This document shows, in pieces, positions 1-9,973 of a stretch of DNA of 12,106 nucleotides (position 1 is the first letter of the stretch; each line of letters starts with the position of its first letter). Below the pieces are notes generated by a model. That model saw nothing but the letters and a program-made list of their open reading frames with translations. It did no database searches and had not been told where the DNA came from. The stretch is from a virus (lineage: Duplodnaviria > Heunggongvirae > Uroviricota > Caudoviricetes): IMG/VR virus record IMGVR_UViG_2744054964_000001; one strand, written 5' to 3'. Both the position numbers and the translations under genes were made by a program.

Positions 1-1254
1 ATGCTGGAACAAATGGGCATTGCCGCGAAGCAAGCCTCGTATAAATTAGCGCAACTCTCCAGCCGCGAAAAAAATCGCGTGCTGGAAAAAATCGCCGATG
101 AACTGGAAGCACAAAGCGAAATCATCCTCAACGCTAACGCCCAGGATGTTGCTGACGCGCGAGCCAATGGCCTTAGCGAAGCGATGCTTGACCGTCTGGC
201 ACTGACGCCCGCACGGCTGAAAGGCATTGCCGACGATGTACGTCAGGTGTGCAACCTCGCCGATCCGGTGGGGCAGGTAATCGATGGCGGCGTACTGGAC
301 AGCGGCCTGCGTCTTGAGCGTCGTCGCGTACCGCTGGGGGTTATTGGCGTGATTTATGAAGCGCGCCCGAACGTGACGGTTGATGTCGCTTCGCTGTGCC
401 TGAAAACCGGTAATGCGGTGATCCTGCGCGGTGGCAAAGAAACGTGTCGCACTAACGCTGCAACGGTGGCGGTGATTCAGGACGCCCTGAAATCCTGCGG
501 CTTACCGGCGGGTGCCGTGCAGGCGATTGATAATCCTGACCGTGCGCTGGTCAGTGAAATGCTGCGTATGGATAAATACATCGACATGCTGATCCCGCGT
601 GGTGGCGCTGGTTTGCATAAACTGTGCCGTGAACAGTCGACAATCCCGGTGATCACAGGTGGTATAGGCGTATGCCATATTTACGTTGATGAAAGTGTAG
701 AGATCGCTGAAGCATTAAAAGTGATCGTCAACGCGAAAACTCAGCGTCCGAGCACATGTAATACGGTTGAAACGTTGCTGGTGAATAAAAACATCGCCGA
801 TAGCTTCCTGCCCGCATTAAGCAAACAAATGGCGGAAAGCGGCGTGACATTACACGCAGATGCAGCTGCACTGGCGCAGTTGCAGGCAGGCCCTGCGAAG
901 GTGGTTGCTGTTAAAGCCGAAGAGTATGACGATGAGTTTCTGTCATTAGATTTGAACGTCAAAATCGTCAGCGATCTTGACGATGCCATCGCCCATATTC
1001 GTGAACACGGCACACAACACTCCGATGCGATCCTGACCCGCGATATGCGCAACGCCCAGCGTTTTGTTAACGAAGTGGATTCGTCCGCTGTTTACGTTAA
1101 CGCCTCTACGCGTTTTACCGACGGCGGCCAGTTTGGTCTGGGTGCGGAAGTGGCGGTAAGCACACAAAAACTCCACGCGCGTGGCCCAATGGGGCTGGAA
1201 GCACTGACCACTTACAAGTGGATCGGCATTGGTGATTACACCATTCGTGCGTAA
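1..1254 (+). CDS. proA: gamma-glutamyl phosphate reductase (glutamate-5-semialdehyde dehydrogenase)
   Basis: Full-length 417-aa ORF starting at window position 1; sequence recognised as enterobacterial ProA (aldehyde dehydrogenase fold); TAA stop at 1252-1254; followed by the tRNA-Thr gene as at the E. coli proBA-thrW locus. Confidence 0.95.
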
Positions 1255-1368: not shown

Positions 1369-1444
1369 GCCGATATAGCTCAGTTGGTAGAGCAGCGCAT
1401 TCGTAATGCGAAGGTCGTAGGTTCGACTCCTATTATCGGCACCA
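1369..1444 (+). tRNA. thrW: tRNA-Thr (anticodon CGT), 76 nt including encoded CCA
   Basis: GCCGATATAGCTCAGTTGGTAGAGCAGCGCATTCGTAATGCGAAGGTCGTAGGTTCGACTCCTATTATCGGCACCA: acceptor stem GCCGATA/TATCGGC, D-loop AGTTGGTAG, anticodon loop TTCGTAA, T-loop GGTTCGACTCC, 3' CCA. Position after proA matches thrW. Confidence 0.9.
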
Positions 1445-1609: not shown

Positions 1610-2824
1610 GTGAAACTCAATGCCCGTCAAATAGACACAGCCAAGCCAAAAGAGAAGGCTTACAAGCTGGCCGATGGTGGCGGTTTGTATCTCTTGGTAA
1701 AACCTAATGGAGGTAAATACTGGCGACTTAAATATCGTGTAGCTGGTAAAGAGAAGCTATTGGCACTAGGTGTGTATCCTGAGGTTACTCTAGCCGATGC
1801 GCGAGCTAAACGTGAAGATGCGAAAAGGGGTATCGCTGGTGGTATCGATCCGATGGAAGCGAAACGAGAGGAAAAGATTGCCCGGGAAACGCAGTTAAAC
1901 AACACCTTCAAAGATATTGCCCTTGAGTGGCACAGCAGCAAATTAAAAAAATGGTCTGCTGGTTATGCTTCAGACATCCTCGAAGCCTTCAACAAAGATG
2001 TGTTCCCTTACATTGGCAAAAAACCAATCGCCGAAATCAAACCACTTGAACTTCTGAATGTGCTGCGGCGCATCGAGGGGCGCGGTGCTACAGAAAAAGC
2101 CAAAAAAGTGAGGCAGCGGTGCGGGGAAGTTTTCCGCTATGCAATAGTCACTGGTCGCGCAGAGTATAACCCTGCACCAGACCTTACTAGCGCGATGCAA
2201 GGTCATGAATCTAATCATTACCCTTTCCTTACAGCCAAAGAATTACCTGATTTTTTCAAGGCATTGTCCAGTTACTCAGGAAGCGCATTGGTTGTTATGG
2301 CGGCTCGTCTACTGATTATCACCGGCTTGCGGACTGGCGAACTACGTGGCGCATTATGGGATGAAATTGATTTCAACAAGGCTATCTGGGAGATACCCGC
2401 TTCACGTATGAAAATGCGGCGGCCTCATATTGTGCCATTGTCTGAGCAGGCTCTTTCGCTTATTGGGAAGATTAGAGAAATAACAGGCAATTACCCTCTT
2501 ATGTTTCCCGGGCGCAATGATCCAAGGAAAACAATGAGCGAGGCCAGCATAAACCAAGTGTTTAAGCGCATTGGCTACGCTGGACGTGTAACTGGTCATG
2601 GGTTCCGGCACACTATGAGTACGATTTTGCATGAGCAGGGCTATAACACTGCGTGGATAGAAACGCAGCTCGCTCACGTTGATAAGAACTCAATTCGTGG
2701 CACATACAACCATGCGCAATATCTGGATGGAAGGCGGGAGATGCTTCAATGGTATGCCGACTATATGGATTCTCTCGAGCATGGCGGAAATGTGGTGCAT
2801 ATGGTGTTTGAAAAACACGCATGA
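1610..2824 (+). CDS. int: Site-specific tyrosine recombinase, P4-family integrase (GTG start)
   Basis: 404-aa ORF; N-terminus KPKEKAYKLADGGGLYLLVKPNGGKYWRLKYR is typical of P4-type integrases (DUF4102-like arm-binding domain); C-terminal catalytic region with LRTGELRG, HGFRHT and a C-terminal Tyr; SD GGAGG at 1596-1600; immediately downstream of a tRNA. Confidence 0.9.
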   Translation: MKLNARQIDTAKPKEKAYKLADGGGLYLLVKPNGGKYWRLKYRVAGKEKLLALGVYPEVTLADARAKREDAKRGIAGGIDPMEAKREEKIARETQLNNTFKDIALEWHSSKLKKWSAGYASDILEAFNKDVFPYIGKKPIAEIKPLELLNVLRRIEGRGATEKAKKVRQRCGEVFRYAIVTGRAEYNPAPDLTSAMQGHESNHYPFLTAKELPDFFKALSSYSGSALVVMAARLLIITGLRTGELRGALWDEIDFNKAIWEIPASRMKMRRPHIVPLSEQALSLIGKIREITGNYPLMFPGRNDPRKTMSEASINQVFKRIGYAGRVTGHGFRHTMSTILHEQGYNTAWIETQLAHVDKNSIRGTYNHAQYLDGRREMLQWYADYMDSLEHGGNVVHMVFEKHA

Positions 2825-2890
2825 AACAACTGGACAAGTATACAGAGGTTTACTAAAGTATAAGGGAGTAGATTGATAAAAACTCACAGA

Positions 2891-3213
2891 GGATTGCTAT
2901 TTAACAGTTAGCCATGGAGAAGGGCAATTGCTCTTTTAACAACGAAGATGGAATCTTCTACGCAGCTGAAAAGCTGGATGCTCTTTAACAGCCTTTGGTG
3001 CTTTCCTGATGCAGGAAAGAATAGGGATACATGCACCTTTACAATGCATGTAATGATTCATCCATGAGGCTGCGGAGCGCTGACAAAGCGCAATTGCTCT
3101 TTAACATTGATGTGGGCGGGATGGTTCATCCCGCAGTGACCGATAGATTTCTATCGGGAAACATACAATGATTCAAATATGAATCTACGGCGCTGACAAA
3201 GCGCAATTGCTCT
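2891..3213. repeat. Array of five direct repeats of the motif (GC)AATTGCTCTTTAACA, including two near-identical 24-bp copies GCGCTGACAAAGCGCAATTGCTCT, in an ORF-free int-alpA spacer
   Basis: Copies at about 2891-2906, 2924-2941, 2975-2990, 3077-3106 and 3190-3213; core GCAATTGC is an 8-bp perfect palindrome; spacing is irregular (33, 51, about 115 and 112 bp). Two small hairpins lie nearby (GCGGGAT..ATCCCGC at about 3114-3132; CCGATAGA..TCTATCGG at about 3139-3157). Confidence 0.5.
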
Positions 3214-3475
3214 CTTGCCTGCCCACCATGCCCTGAAAAAGGGCGTTCTTTAAAACTACTGGATGTCACGCCTAATAGCGTGATCCTGCCGAAATGCAGG
3301 GTAGCTCTACCCTTGTGGAGCAAACAAACCAAAACAATCTGACTATCTTTTATAAAAGACCGCAATATGTTTTTCATATTGTGGTCTTTGGCGTATTCGA
3401 CATTTGACGCAAATAAAACTCTCGCCATTCGTTGCAGGAGGGGGTTATTGCGTCATTAGTACAGGATATTAATAA

Positions 3476-3679
3476 ATGGCTAATTACAATTCATTAATTC
3501 GTCTCTCTGAAGTTCAAAGGCGAACTGGTTATAGCAAAGCATGGATTTATCGTCTTATTAGTCAGGGGAGGTTCCCTAAACAGGTAAAAATTGGAAGTCG
3601 GGCAATTGCTTTTGTTGAGTCTGAAATAGATGAATGGATTGAGAAGTGTATATTAGAATCTAGAGACGAGGTGGCCTGA
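3476..3679 (+). CDS. alpA: AlpA/Vis-family phage transcriptional regulator (excisionase-like DNA-binding protein)
   Basis: 67-aa ORF; sequence LSEVQRRTGYSKAWIYRLISQGRFPKQVKIGSRAIAFVESEIDEWI matches the AlpA family helix-turn-helix pattern; stop overlaps the start of the next ORF (TGATG). Confidence 0.85.
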   Translation: MANYNSLIRLSEVQRRTGYSKAWIYRLISQGRFPKQVKIGSRAIAFVESEIDEWIEKCILESRDEVA

Positions 3680-4110
3680 TGGAAAAGAAAAACCGCCCAT
3701 TACAGGCGGCTAACTCAGATATTCGCACGTCTGATATTACGCCGACCACCAGCCCGGTACAAGTACCTAGGCGTACCCCAAAGAAACACCGCGCCCGCGT
3801 CTATATGCTGCGTACTGGTATAGAGGGATGGACAGAAAACGACATTCTTCGCTACTGCCGTCTGTCTTCTGGTCGTAACTATGCAACAGAGTTAGAACGC
3901 CAGCTTGGAATCACTCTGGAGCGTATCGACGAAAAGAATCCTGATGGTATCGGAACACACCTTCGCTACCGTTTCTCCTGCCGTGGTGATGTTCTGAAAG
4001 TGATCACTCATGTTAACCATCTTGCGAACATAAATGATCACAACGGACTTTCTCAGCAGGAAATTGCCGACATTCTGAAACTCTACCCGGACGCGTTTAA
4101 CGCCGCCTAA
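3679..4110 (+). CDS. Hypothetical protein, 143 aa, translationally coupled to alpA
   Basis: ATG overlaps the alpA stop; SD GAGGTGG at about 3667-3673; basic N-terminal region (PRRTPKKHRAR); no family recognised by eye. Confidence 0.6.
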   Translation: MEKKNRPLQAANSDIRTSDITPTTSPVQVPRRTPKKHRARVYMLRTGIEGWTENDILRYCRLSSGRNYATELERQLGITLERIDEKNPDGIGTHLRYRFSCRGDVLKVITHVNHLANINDHNGLSQQEIADILKLYPDAFNAA

Positions 4111-5187: not shown

Positions 5188-5418
5188 TCTGCAACCTTAC
5201 AAAACCTGATATTGATACCGCAGCGCCTGGAGTTCCGTTACCAGTACGCGAGGCGCTTACCCTCAACAAAAAGATGGTGAGCCGTGCACAGGGAAAACTC
5301 TTAAAGGGTTACGGTTTTATCTGGTATGACCACCTAGCAGAGAAAAGCTGTTATAGTCCAAGCGTTGCTGCAAAATCAGCAACCGGGCGTGAGAACCCGA
5401 ACACACTCAGGGCGACAC

Positions 5419-5441
5419 AGACGCCGAAAGCGTCTTTTTTT
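5419..5441 (+). terminator. Rho-independent terminator (AGACGC-CGAAA-GCGTCT followed by T7)
   Basis: 6-bp GC-rich stem, 5-nt loop, run of seven T; preceded by a second hairpin GTTGCTG-CAAAAT-CAGCAAC at 5364-5383. Confidence 0.5.
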
Positions 5442-5507
5442 GTGTCCATTCACTACGCACATCAAATCAGCGGACTTACCCGTACTGTATCAATGGTGGC
5501 GTTAGTG

Positions 5508-5622
5508 GGGCTACGTTCGCGTAGGCCGGTTTCCTTTGTGTCCGGTATTCTCACCCCCGCTGACGTCACCGCCAATTCAGAGCGTGAGAACTCAGGCGGT
5601 GACTCCTTAAACACAAAGGAGG
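5508..5622 (+). promoter_or_regulatory. Candidate C4/CI-type antisense RNA or RBS-masking leader upstream of the icd-like gene
   Basis: Hairpin CTACG-TTCG-CGTAG (5511-5524); CCGG-TTTCCTTTGTGT-CCGG stem-loop (5526-5545) whose loop TCCTTTGTGT (5532-5541) is the exact reverse complement of ACACAAAGGA (5611-5620), which overlaps the SD AAGGAGG (5616-5622) of the icd-like ORF; second copy TTTGTGTCC at 5439-5447. Confidence 0.35.
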
Positions 5623-7197: not shown

Positions 7198-7539
7198 ATG
7201 ATTACTAAAAATTTCCGACTTAATGCGCTGGCGAATAAGTATGCGTCGGCACTGTATAACCACATTACGGCTATCAATGGTGGCAATTACTTCATGGTTG
7301 ACGCGGCAGGCCAGCAAATCCGTGTGGAGATCGTCAATGGAGTAAAAGGCGTTCGCAGCCTGATCGATAGCTACACACTGGCAGCCATGAAAGTGTCCTA
7401 CCCGCAGTGGGAAACCGTGGGGGTCGAGCTTCTTGAGCGTTGCGTCACTAAGGACGGATTGACTGACGTCGGGCGCGAGATATGGCAAAGCATGGTTAAA
7501 GACATGGGCGCGACAGTGGCAGGAGGCAATCATGCGTAA
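7198..7539 (+). CDS. Hypothetical protein (113 aa)
   Basis: SD GAGGGGG upstream; stop overlaps the primase start (ATGCGTAA). Confidence 0.6.
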   Translation: MITKNFRLNALANKYASALYNHITAINGGNYFMVDAAGQQIRVEIVNGVKGVRSLIDSYTLAAMKVSYPQWETVGVELLERCVTKDGLTDVGREIWQSMVKDMGATVAGGNHA

Positions 7540-9973
7540 TATCGACCTTATCCGCGAAGTGACCAGTGCCGCCGCCGGGCGCTGGCCTTATGTGCTGGCT
7601 GGATTGTCTATCGACGTGCCTGATTCATCGCGCCGCCATTCTCCATGCCCTGCATGTGGTGGAAAAGACCGTTTCAGATTCGACGACAACGGGCGCGGTA
7701 GCTTTATCTGCAACCAGTGTGGCGCTGGTGACGGGCTGGATTTAATCAAGCGGGTTAACAACTGCGACACTACGGAGGCGGCACAGCTTGCCGCTGACGT
7801 GCTGGGTATTGATTACCGGGCAGCGCAAACCGACCCGGTGGCAGCGAGCCATAGAAGAGAGCAACTGGAAGCTGACCGCCAGCAGCGTGAGCAGGAGCGC
7901 CAGAAACAGGCAGCAGAGGATGCAGAGCAGCGAAGGGCTACGTTTGCCCGTCTGTATGCCGGAATGCGCCAGAGTGCCACACAGGGCGAATCTGATTACC
8001 TGCAATCAAAAGGGCTGACCGGGTTTAAATATCCGGTAATGCCGGATGGTTCGTTATTGCTGGAGCTGGTGGACGAATCCGGCGCAGTGGCAGCAGCGCA
8101 AACCATTACACCGCAGGGAGAGAAGCGACTCCTGACAGGTTCAGCAAAGCGCGGGGCATATCACGCCGTAAACGCGCCAGAATCGCCGCAGAGCGTTTTA
8201 ATTGCCGAGGGGCTGGCGACGGCCCTTTCAGTTCACCTGATGCGCCCGGACGCGCTGGCAGTGGCAGCAATTGACGCGGGCAACCTGCTACCCGTTGCCG
8301 AAGTGATGCGCCGGAAACACCCGCAGTCGCAAATTATCATTGCCGCAGATAACGACCACCAGCAGGACGAACAGGCGAACACGGGCAAAGATGCCGCAGA
8401 GAAAGCCGCCTTATCCGTGGCTGGCTGGGTGGCGCTGCCGCCGACAGACTATAAAGCCGACTGGGACGACTACCGCCAGCAAAACGGGCTGGAAGTCGCT
8501 ACGGCTGCGTTTAACGATTCGATGTACCAGATTCAGGGGGAAGCCGTGAAACCACAACTACAGGCCATTGCGGGCGGTAAATCCCGCCGTAAAGCCGAAG
8601 TCGGAGATATTGCACAAATGGCAGCCAGCCAGAAAGCGCGGTTGCTTTCATCTCGATGGGATATGTTGGCGGTTAACCCTGATAGTGGCACTGTTTACTG
8701 TTACGAATCTGGCGTATGGGAGAAGCTACCAGACAGTGAATTAGAAAGGGTTATGGTGGCAATTTTCGACGAGCACGAAGCCCACTACACCGAAAAGGGG
8801 ATTAAATCGGTTGTCGCAACCATGAAGCTGCAAATACCGGTAATTGGTGAGCGGAGCGGGGATCTGATTGGTTTTGATAACGGCGTTTATGACCTCGCCA
8901 CGCAGACGTTTTCCGCCCATTCGCCGGGTAACTGGCTGATGAACCACAATGGGATCACCTACACCCCGCCAGCGCCGGGGGAAAATATTACCACCAGCGC
9001 CCCCAATTTTACCCGTTGGCTGAATCATGCAACGGCTGGCGACCATCATAAGGCCGAGCGTATCAAAGCAGCCTTGTTTATGGTGCTGGCGAAGCGTCAC
9101 GACTGGCAGCTATTCATTGAGATAACTGGCGAGGGCGGCAGTGGGAAATCCGTATTCAGCAGCATAGCAACCACGCTGGCAGGTGAACACAACACCGCCA
9201 GCGGTAGCATGATGACGCTGGACACCGCACGGGGACGAGCGCAGTTCGTAGGAAAAAGCCTGATTATTATGCCTGACCAGACCCGCTATGTTGGAGAGGG
9301 TGCGGGGATTAAGGCCATTACGGGCGGCGATCCGGTAGAGATTGATGGGAAATATGAAAAGCAGTTCACAACCGTGCTAAATGCCGTTGTTATGGCAACC
9401 AATAACGAGCCGATGACATTCACGGAGCGAAACGGGGGCATTGCCCGCCGCCGCGTGATATTCCCGTTTAATAACCCGGTATCAGACGCAGACAAAGACC
9501 CGGATTTAACCGCAAAAATCAGGCGAGAAATCCCGGTGATTATCCGCCACCTGCTAACCACCTTTGCCGACCAGAACAAAGCAAAGGCACTATTACTAGA
9601 GCAGCGCGATTCGCAGGAGGCGCTAGAGGTTAAACGCGGCACAGATCCGGTTGTCGATATGTGTGCGGCGCTTTTTTTCATGAACGAACCCAAAGGCATG
9701 ATGATGGGCGGAGGTACATGGGCAGGCCAGCCAGAGCCGAGGACATATCTTTATCATCTTTATCTGGCGTTTATGGAGTATCACGGCCTGGGTAAACCGC
9801 TTTCCGTCAATAAGTTTTCACGCGCCATAAAATCAGCAGCAAAAGAGTACCGAGCCAGCTACCTGACGAGAAGCATTAACGGCAGAGCGCAAACCAACGT
9901 TGGCTATAACGAGAAGGCTGAGGAGTTCATGCCACGCGCTTACGGCGTGGAGAGCGGGCAGAGTGATGATTGA
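7532..9973 (+). CDS. P4 alpha-type bifunctional DNA primase / helicase
   Basis: 813 aa; N-terminal Cys4 zinc ribbon (CPACGGKDRF...CNQCGAGDG); Toprim-like acidic motifs (LIAEGLATA, IIAADNDHQQDE); C-terminal P-loop GEGGSGKS (nt 9128-9151) of D5_N/SF3-type helicase; SD AGGAGG upstream. Confidence 0.9.
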   Translation: MRNIDLIREVTSAAAGRWPYVLAGLSIDVPDSSRRHSPCPACGGKDRFRFDDNGRGSFICNQCGAGDGLDLIKRVNNCDTTEAAQLAADVLGIDYRAAQTDPVAASHRREQLEADRQQREQERQKQAAEDAEQRRATFARLYAGMRQSATQGESDYLQSKGLTGFKYPVMPDGSLLLELVDESGAVAAAQTITPQGEKRLLTGSAKRGAYHAVNAPESPQSVLIAEGLATALSVHLMRPDALAVAAIDAGNLLPVAEVMRRKHPQSQIIIAADNDHQQDEQANTGKDAAEKAALSVAGWVALPPTDYKADWDDYRQQNGLEVATAAFNDSMYQIQGEAVKPQLQAIAGGKSRRKAEVGDIAQMAASQKARLLSSRWDMLAVNPDSGTVYCYESGVWEKLPDSELERVMVAIFDEHEAHYTEKGIKSVVATMKLQIPVIGERSGDLIGFDNGVYDLATQTFSAHSPGNWLMNHNGITYTPPAPGENITTSAPNFTRWLNHATAGDHHKAERIKAALFMVLAKRHDWQLFIEITGEGGSGKSVFSSIATTLAGEHNTASGSMMTLDTARGRAQFVGKSLIIMPDQTRYVGEGAGIKAITGGDPVEIDGKYEKQFTTVLNAVVMATNNEPMTFTERNGGIARRRVIFPFNNPVSDADKDPDLTAKIRREIPVIIRHLLTTFADQNKAKALLLEQRDSQEALEVKRGTDPVVDMCAALFFMNEPKGMMMGGGTWAGQPEPRTYLYHLYLAFMEYHGLGKPLSVNKFSRAIKSAAKEYRASYLTRSINGRAQTNVGYNEKAEEFMPRAYGVESGQSDD

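Follow-up and report, generated by a model that had tools for sequence, protein, structure and literature searches.

In this work, we analyzed the interval between the integrase gene int and the alpA gene of a phage satellite contained in a 12,106-nucleotide (nt) stretch of viral DNA (IMG/VR record IMGVR_UViG_2744054964_000001; hereafter, the window). The window begins with proA and carries the tRNA-Thr gene thrW, the tyrosine integrase gene of the satellite, the int-alpA spacer, alpA itself and, downstream of it, co-oriented genes that include an AntA/Bro-type protein, an Ash/Icd-like region and a P4-type primase (Table 1). The common orientation of int, alpA and the primase gene, a length within the range of about 10-20 kb (~12 kb at thrW in strain CP131_Sichuan, which is 99.8% identical), a specific attachment (att) site and the lack of a phage structural set are those of a Gram-negative phage-inducible chromosomal island (PICI), and the layout matches the integration, Bro and replication regions described for these islands (PMC10111431). 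The thrW site and an AlpA of the same RefSeq accession assign the element to the family of EcCIMP1, an experimentally verified PICI of Escherichia coli MP1 that is inserted in tRNA-Thr between proA and yagU (PMC11773190) and whose AlpA, WP_000035054.1, is the accession also found in the near-identical relatives of the window. Gram-negative islands have no repressor; their alpA gene is switched on by the helper, and AlpA, the master activator, then activates its own promoter and starts excision and replication (PMC6092414).

The spacer, which the original prediction had singled out as a region without genes and packed with direct repeats, is indeed free of conserved genes over its 651 nt. The only sizeable open reading frame (ORF), on the minus strand (3126-3428), exists as stated but was judged spurious: Pfam and PHROG gave no match to it, a single one of the relatives checked has it annotated (as hypothetical), and most of the related spacers have lost it through the deletions that set them apart. 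The related spacers differ by whole modules and not by remnants of genes, and the proposal that the interval is the scar of a deleted repressor gene thus finds no support. An Rfam scan of the window gave no match in 2825-3475 at E≤1. The spacer RNA nevertheless folds far better than shuffled sequences (z = -9.5) and contains about 13 local hairpins, many more than the two that had been counted. As for the repeats, the five copies reported are real, but only those starting at 2979 and 3095 are exact matches to TGCTCTTTAACA; a scan with CGCTCTT(T)A / TGCTCTTTAACA returned these two 12-mers, near matches at 2895 (one mismatch) and 2929 (one extra T), and partial ones at 3208 (the first 6 nt only) and 3244, the latter being a sixth, degenerate copy. 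With up to two mismatches, TTGCTCTTTAACA matches three times against 0.28 expected in the whole window, always in the spacer and always on the plus strand. The 24-nt units at 3077-3100 and 3190-3213, taken for near-identical, are in fact identical, and the palindromic core that had been considered a feature, GCAATTGC, which occurs three times (2924, 3090 and 3203), is a mere by-product of the junction ...GC-AAT-TGC between the end of one signal (boxB) and the start of the next (boxA).

The candidates were compared with the real boxA and boxB sites of phages lambda, P22, 21 and phi80. The repeated AATTGCTCTTTAACA is boxA, an antitermination signal, and is identical to boxA of the E. coli rrn leaders and of phage 21 nutR. 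TGCTCTTTAACA(A) is found in the E. coli rrn leader, and each of the 5426 genomes has about seven copies of a 41-mer that starts with it, located 144 nt 5' of the 16S gene. With its AATT prefix, the repeat equals the curated boxA-R of phage 21 (AAATTGCTCTTTAACAG), which occurs also in Kapi1, the helper phage of EcCIMP1; the same holds for AATTGCTCTTTAACAG, equally the curated boxA-R of phage 21 and present in Kapi1 too. The GT-rich TGATGTGGGCGGG behind the fourth copy is possibly boxC-like. Every boxB is preceded by an upstream boxA, at spacings of 3 to ~85 nt, and the conserved repeat unit is boxB-AAT-boxA.

The hairpins between the boxA copies are, by their sequence, phage boxB elements. Measured against the N-specific reference loops (GAAAA or GAAGA in lambda, GACAA in P22, CUAACC in phage 21), the spacer holds one boxB identical over 15 of 15 positions to lambda nutR and two, the second at 3190-3204, identical over 15 of 15 to P22 nutL. 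The boxB at 3077-3091 forms part of an 18-nt exact match to nutL of Shiga toxin (Stx) phages, HK97 and mEp234. A segment of 48 nt (3160-3207) is 94-96% identical to more than 90 phage records, including 933W, H-19B and other Stx phages, and comprises both the dyad (GATTC..GAATC) and the TACG linker of the Stx phages; its phage counterparts, annotated as nutL in GQ499361, lie upstream of N in the same sense as the pL transcript. The first boxB-like hairpin has an intact stem in most relatives (GCCCTGGAGAAGGGC, 14/15 to lambda nutL boxB); a scan for GCCCTGGAGAAGGGC was swamped by chance matches and uninformative. The dyad at 2944-2958 reads GAAGG...CCTTC or GAAGAT...GTCTTC in relatives, that is, with pairing kept. 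BLAST of 3205-3300 against phages gave nothing useful because the boxB is too short. At the end of the array, 3244-3283 is identical to the nutR of phage 21 and Kapi1 at 30-33 of 47 positions (z about 6-7 against shuffles), with a boxA-boxB spacer of 9-10 nt, and the changes found in the stem (3266-3283) of a relative in another island keep it paired. This hairpin is only similar to the phage 21 boxB since its loop is CUAAUA instead of CUAACC, the hexaloop whose fold has been described (PMC12550061); when viral contigs were scanned for exact matches to the hairpin, all but one, an unrelated sequence, were copies of this satellite family. The phi80 nutL (L254, 9050-9215) has boxA TGCTTTTTAACAA and the core hairpin CACG-UAAA-CGUG, and the satellite hairpin CACGC-CUAAUA-GCGUG has the stem start and the UAA of the loop that are common to the phi80 and phage 21 boxBs.

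Table 1. Features of the window, with emphasis on the int-alpA spacer.
Feature	Position	Strand	Remarks
proA	1-1254		First gene of the window
tRNA-Thr gene thrW	1369-1444		tRNA scan; adjoins the integrase gene
Tyrosine integrase gene of the satellite (int)	1610-2824	+	Pfam Phage_integrase, Arm-DNA-bind_3
int-alpA spacer	2825-3475		651 nt, ORF-free
Promoter-like site TGGACA-17 nt-TAAAGT	2831-2859	+	Consensus scan; ~35 nt 5' of the first boxA; predicted function
boxA copy 1, TGCTATTTAACAG	2895-2907	+	11/12 to TGCTCTTTAACA
boxB-like hairpin 1, GCCATGGAGAAGGGC	2911-2925	+	13/15 to lambda nutL boxB; stem broken in the window
boxA copy 2, TGCTCTTTTAACAA	2929-2942	+	One extra T; CGCTCTTTTA... in relatives
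Dyad hairpin GAAGAT-gga-ATCTTC, then TACG	2944-2958	+	Placed like the dyad of the H-19B/933W nutL spacer
Hairpin CAGCT-GAAA-AGCTG, GNRA loop	2963-2976	+	GACAA-loop boxB in the same slot in relatives
boxA copy 3, TGCTCTTTAACAG	2979-2991	+	Identical to phage 21 nutR boxA
Two hairpins (CTTTCCTG-atg-CAGGAAAG; CATGCA...TGCATG)	3001-3050	+	Near-identical in tRNA-Gly element L090
boxB GCGCTGACAAAGCGC, P22/HK97/933W/H-19B type, GACAA loop	3077-3091	+	15/15 to P22 nutL boxB
boxA copy 4, TGCTCTTTAACAT	3095-3107	+	Followed by GT-rich TGATGTGGGCGGG
Two hairpins (GCGGGATG-gtt-CATCCCGC; CCGATAG-attt-CTATCGG)	3116-3157	+	
100-aa ORF	3126-3428	-	Judged spurious
boxB-proximal half of a 933W/H-19B-type nutL	3160-3207	+	Dyad GATTCaaatatGAATC 3170-3185, TACG, boxB GCGCTGACAAAGCGC 3190-3204
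boxA copy 5, TGCTCTCTT, truncated	3208-3216	+	22 nt before lambda-type boxB (17 nt in lambda)
boxB GCCCTGAAAAAGGGC	3230-3244	+	15/15 to lambda nutR boxB (J02459)
Phage-21-like nut	3244-3283	+	Degenerate boxA CGTTCTTTAAAAC, 9-nt spacer, 6-bp stem TCACGC/GCGTGA, hexaloop CUAAUA (TCACGCCTAATAGCGTGA, 3266-3283)
Hairpin CCTGC-cgaaat-GCAGG	3285-3300	+	Double compensatory change to CCCGC...GCGGG in L090/L109
C/A-rich, G-poor tract	3316-3345	+	C 22% vs G 12% over 3305-3382; more CA-rich in L090
15-bp hairpin, then UUUGGCGUAUU	3355-3389	+	Candidate intrinsic terminator between nut array and alpA
Inverted repeat TGACGCAA ... TTGCGTCA	3405-3455	.	Between terminator-like hairpin and alpA ribosome-binding site; TGACGC half-sites kept in L090 (tRNA-Gly element)
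alpA (AlpA family)	3476-3679	+	Pfam Phage_AlpA E=7e-20; gene proposed as controlled
P4-type primase gene	7532-9973		Co-oriented with alpA

The signals that flank the array complete the arrangement. On the plus strand the parts follow each other in the order promoter-like site, nut array (2895-3283), hairpin, CA-rich tract, hairpin with U-tract, inverted repeat and alpA. The promoter-like site is kept in all the E. coli variants, EcCIMP1 included, and lies inside the published alpA reporter fragment of that island (-449 to +50). The terminator-like hairpin is more stable on the plus strand (dG -20.8 kcal/mol) than on the minus strand (-16.3 kcal/mol), and in the tRNA-Gly relative L090 it shows a compensatory U-A to C-G change and a better U-tract; in the RNAalifold alignment of the relatives, the row of L119 has wrong-strand coordinates and is to be disregarded. 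The base composition of 3316-3345 hints faintly at a possible Rho loading site, and, speculatively, the inverted repeat next to alpA could be an AlpA autoregulatory site or an activator-dependent promoter (TTGACG-17-ATTCGT).

Taken together, these features point towards a leader of a transcript directed to alpA that carries tandem lambdoid nut sites, boxA repeats alternating with boxBs of at least three specificities (lambda, P22/HK97/933W/H-19B and phage-21-like). We consider it fairly probable that this leader is a multi-specificity sensor of N proteins, built as promoter, nut array, terminator and alpA. With such an array, the satellite would probably be activated once a helper produces N, the first gene product of an induced lambdoid phage. 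Without a helper, transcription from the weak promoter 3' of int would end before alpA at the hairpin and U-tract, perhaps with the help of Rho, and the satellite would remain silent. Upon induction of or infection by a lambdoid helper, immediate-early N would bind the matching boxB on the nascent leader and, together with NusA, NusB, NusE and NusG at boxA, render RNA polymerase resistant to termination, allowing read-through into alpA; AlpA would then amplify its own expression and lead to excision and replication. By combining boxBs, the array may broaden the range of helpers sensed to lambda-type, P22/HK97/933W-type and phage-21-type phages, and recombination between the boxA repeats could reshuffle the boxB cassettes. 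A promoter followed by a nut site, a terminator and a reporter is the classical construct for assaying N; here, alpA stands in the place of the reporter. This reading bears out the earlier suggestion that the interval is regulatory and makes dependence on a regulator encoded elsewhere probable; the suggestion of a non-coding RNA came close, the signals presumably acting within the leader transcript.

Published experiments with EcCIMP1 bear on this proposal. The int-alpA spacer of that island is a 427-nt version of the array, entirely covered by the alpA-lux fusion extending from -449 to +50, which is strongly induced upon induction of the helper Kapi1; mitomycin C does not induce it in a non-lysogen, and the response persists in an alpA deletion (PMC11773190). 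The helper-responsive cis element and a promoter therefore lie inside the spacer. Induction and packaging by the helper have been demonstrated for a close relative of the window element, in a study in which the region figures simply as "the alpA promoter region", with no mention of nut-like content or of N (PMC11773190). Kapi1 encodes a phage-21-type N (100% identity over the 44 residues compared), and its nut sites are identical to those of phage 21. We infer that the phage-21-like hairpin is bound by N of phage 21 or Kapi1; as its loop is CUAAUA and not CUAACC and such binding is putative, the link between EcCIMP1 and Kapi1 is circumstantial.

The boxA copies could also be explained by the host alone. 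In this alternative, boxA recruits NusB, NusE, NusA, NusG and SuhB and constitutively protects the untranslated leader from Rho, as in rrn-type antitermination, the hairpins being incidental. Both the rrn leaders and boxA-preceded CRISPR arrays are protected from Rho by boxA without any phage protein. Four of the copies are near-perfect matches to the rrn boxA, the succession of hairpin, 3 nt and boxA within the unit is that of the rrn leader, and the leader is ~600 nt long, untranslated and provided with a CA-rich tract. However, a single boxA would suffice for this purpose, and the exact lambda, P22 and 933W boxB copies and the 48-nt nutL homology would be left unexplained. Besides, constitutive read-through into alpA should be harmful, since over-expression of AlpA causes uncontrolled replication of the island (PMC6092414), and in EcCIMP1 the reporter stays silent before helper induction (PMC11773190). 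We regard host-only protection as unlikely.

Another possibility is that the leader acts as a decoy for N, and for Nus factors, an abundant RNA that soaks up helper N once the island replicates and delays the early programme of the helper, either instead of or beside sensing. The presence on one RNA of several high-quality sites for several types of N agrees with it, and PICIs are known to interfere with their helpers, EcCIMP1 affecting superinfection by Kapi1 (PMC11773190). Notwithstanding, a switch would require placement directly 5' of the master activator and an intervening terminator, neither of which is necessary for a decoy; the candidate promoter is, moreover, weak, and since the cis target of N is the polymerase transcribing that very RNA, N captured by the leader would still drive read-through. 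As an explanation of its own the decoy receives little credence from us; titration of N as an added role is possible. With considerable doubt, the array might also be viewed as a cassette-based helper-range locus in which each boxB cassette serves one N family, cassettes are gained, lost or swapped through boxA recombination and the same RNA, when abundant, titrates N and Nus factors and slows the helper, making it a sensor and an interference weapon at once.

alpA genes at least 99% identical to that of the window were found in 277 of the 5426 complete E. coli genomes, and their spacers exist in at least eight versions (E. coli and metagenomes), of 391, 392, 427, 651 nt and other lengths. The versions differ by whole boxB/boxA modules with junctions that fall inside the repeats, same-accession AlpA proteins sit behind arrays of 2 to 5 modules, and the loop at one slot is either GAAA or GACAA, depending on the version. 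The window has a rare long form (29/5426 genomes) that includes an additional lambda-type boxB and another 933W-type nut. Changes between relatives in the hairpins keep G-U-compatible pairing on the plus strand only. These comparisons weigh on the proposal, made in the original prediction, that the repeats are DNA-level sites for an AlpA/Vis-type protein or the integrase controlling excision or int expression. Direct repeats beside int and alpA would suit such a role, and the P4 relative Vis binds DNA near its own promoter. AlpA likewise activates its own promoter (PMC6092414). The repeat, however, is a known RNA signal (boxA) always found in the same orientation, the parts that vary are hairpins that copy lambdoid boxBs exactly or nearly so and whose changes are G-U-compatible on one strand, the number of modules varies in front of the same AlpA, the AlpA of EcCICFT073 did not control int (PMC6092414), and the inverted repeat at 3405-3455 is a better candidate for an AlpA site. 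DNA-level binding to the repeats thus appears extremely improbable.

The tRNA-Gly island L090, whose alpA is only 75% identical, carries a near-identical central block of the array, suggesting recent exchange of the array as a module between islands with different flanks. Aligned directly, L090 (E. coli strain 4, tRNA-Gly/actS island) 2060-2270 and window 2940-3260 are nearly 100% identical, and the flanks differ. According to a further alternative, the spacer contains non-functional debris: recombination with prophages would have brought in fragments of lambdoid nut regions, which are now decaying. The mutated boxBs of some relatives (L109/L119) and boxB 1 of the window could be so explained, and lambdoid prophages do stand in tandem at the same tRNA site. 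Against it, fragments from at least three phage types share orientation and position, the central block is near-identical between elements with 75% identical alpA, compensatory changes preserve the hairpins, and analogous arrays exist in other genera. Decaying debris is in our opinion highly unlikely.

Analogous arrays came to light among 80 AlpA loci of other Enterobacterales, where two ORF-free int-alpA spacers, from Pantoea septica (L010) and Providencia alcalifaciens (L070), have four to five plus-strand boxA-like motifs, each beside a different hairpin (e.g. GCTCT-GAGTA-AGAGC); the other loci of this set had no rrn-type boxA upstream. The L010 spacer (-740 to -1 relative to alpA) has two terminators before alpA, one homologous to the 3355-3389 hairpin and a strong second one, and that of L070 (-1170 to -1) a perfect sigma-70 promoter, TTGACT-17-TATAAT, before its first boxA.

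Several observations weigh against N-dependent control of alpA by the spacer. The promoter-like site agrees with the consensus at only 9 of 12 positions, and such sites were no commoner in the scan than in shuffled sequences. The U-tract of the 3355-3389 hairpin is weak in the window (UUUGGCGUAUU), and a consensus terminator scan did not report this hairpin on either strand. Within the array, boxB precedes boxA in the repeat unit, as in the rrn leaders, the boxA upstream of the lambda-type sites is degenerate or oddly spaced (22 nt vs 17 nt), boxB 1 is mutated, the loop of the phage-21-like hairpin departs from CUAACC in its last two bases, and some relatives (L109, L119) have decayed boxBs. 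Finally, most other alpA families examined have no boxA array, and no lambda boxB can be recognised upstream of alpA in EcCICFT073, although both lambda and phi80 induce that island. The nut-array device is therefore specific to a family and not general to PICIs.

Among those other families, E. coli L091-L093 and L251-L253 showed cargo genes or different repeats in place of the boxA array. In L092/L251 (~230 nt 5' of alpA) and L093 (~250 nt), a cargo gene encoding DUF6387 or a hypothetical protein separates int from alpA, and the repeats are ACCCTGAGGGT and CACCCTTAGGGT palindromes or of the ATAGTGCCCACC type, which look like protein operators and not nut sites. The EcCICFT073 spacer (L095 9161-9525, CFT073) contains about six (A/G)ACAACG direct repeats, the boxA-like CACTCTTAAAAAT, which agrees with lambda nutL boxA and its spacer at 12 of 13 positions, and an unrelated hairpin of 12 bp whose loop reads GUAAAA. 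An extension of the nut-array model to EcCICFT073 was dropped, as it has only the boxA-like motif and the unrelated hairpin.

The proposed N sensor shares elements with several known systems. The nutL and nutR sites of lambda, P22, 21, H-19B/933W and HK97 have the same boxA and boxB, some of them identical, an H-19B-style dyad between boxA and boxB, and the same strand logic of promoter, nut, terminator and regulated genes. Whereas those phages have one site per operon, the satellite has five or six in tandem, of different specificities and with no recognisable N of its own, its repeat unit places boxB before boxA, and the gene controlled would be the activator of the satellite. With the rrn leader (boxB-boxA-boxC) it shares a boxA identical over 12 nt and a hairpin directly upstream of boxA; in contrast, the satellite hairpins appear to be boxBs of the type bound by phage N, there is no clear boxC, the unit is multi-copy and the expected output is conditional instead of constitutive. 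The gene order int-alpA-Bro zone-primase is that of EcCIMP1 and other Gram-negative PICIs, EcCIMP1 having in addition the same thrW site and AlpA accession; the difference lies in the spacer, which measures 427 nt in EcCIMP1 and in the window is the rare 651-nt form containing an added lambda-type boxB and a further 933W-type nut. De-repression of Stl in the Staphylococcus aureus pathogenicity islands (SaPIs) and the cross-activation between P4 and P2 obey the same logic, silence until an early helper product appears. In SaPIs and P4, however, a regulator of the satellite makes the protein-protein or protein-DNA contacts by which the helper protein is sensed, whereas here we propose a cis-acting RNA array and no satellite repressor. 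Satellite expression is likewise tied to transcription control of the helper in helper-embedded PICIs, which are wired in cis inside a late gene of the helper (PMC10111431), while the element of the window would respond in trans to a diffusible antiterminator.

How Gram-negative PICIs detect their helpers has been an open question since 2018, when helper phages were reported to activate alpA transcription and the phage inducer was still under study (PMC6092414). No paper found in the searchable literature names a helper-encoded inducer of these islands, or links nut, boxB, boxA or antitermination with PICIs or satellites. Nut sites, N antitermination and helper-dependent induction of alpA are each known, and a multi-specificity nut array controlling a satellite activator appears undescribed in that literature. 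For the EcCIMP1/thrW family, the reading advanced here names a candidate inducer (helper N) and a candidate sensor (the nut array), and makes both testable by simple experiments. If it is true, it would be a case of helper sensing by a cis-acting RNA that exploits phage antitermination, for which we found no precedent among satellites in the searchable literature; the response of one island to unrelated lambdoid helpers would be explained, and the helper range would become predictable from sequence. This would be relevant to the spread of islands with virulence or defence genes and to engineered PICI "drones".

Lambdoid or P22-like prophage genes follow the island directly, in tandem at thrW, in CP131_Sichuan (L246 24798-28651) and F5656C1 (L002, from 12090). 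The neighbouring lambdoid prophage of CP131_Sichuan is defective, truncated by IS1 and without an annotated N, and no helper could thus be matched to that island. The ORF that follows alpA (3679-4110, 143 aa) overlaps the alpA stop codon (ATGA) and is called "PM1773 family" in the annotation of one genome; profile scans assigned it to no Pfam or PHROG family, and inspection found no convincing arginine-rich N-like motif in it, nor a recognisable N in the satellite. The gene 3' of alpA is a variable region in capsid-forming PICIs (cf-PICIs; 2025 preprint). Further downstream, Rfam returned strong matches to c4-a1b1 (5351-5403), isrK (5364-5440) and C4 antisense RNA (5489-5576), located within or beside the Ash/Icd-like ORF and 3' of the AntA/Bro gene; these identify 5351-5576 as the RNA immunity module (P1/P7/P4 type) of the PICI "Bro zone".

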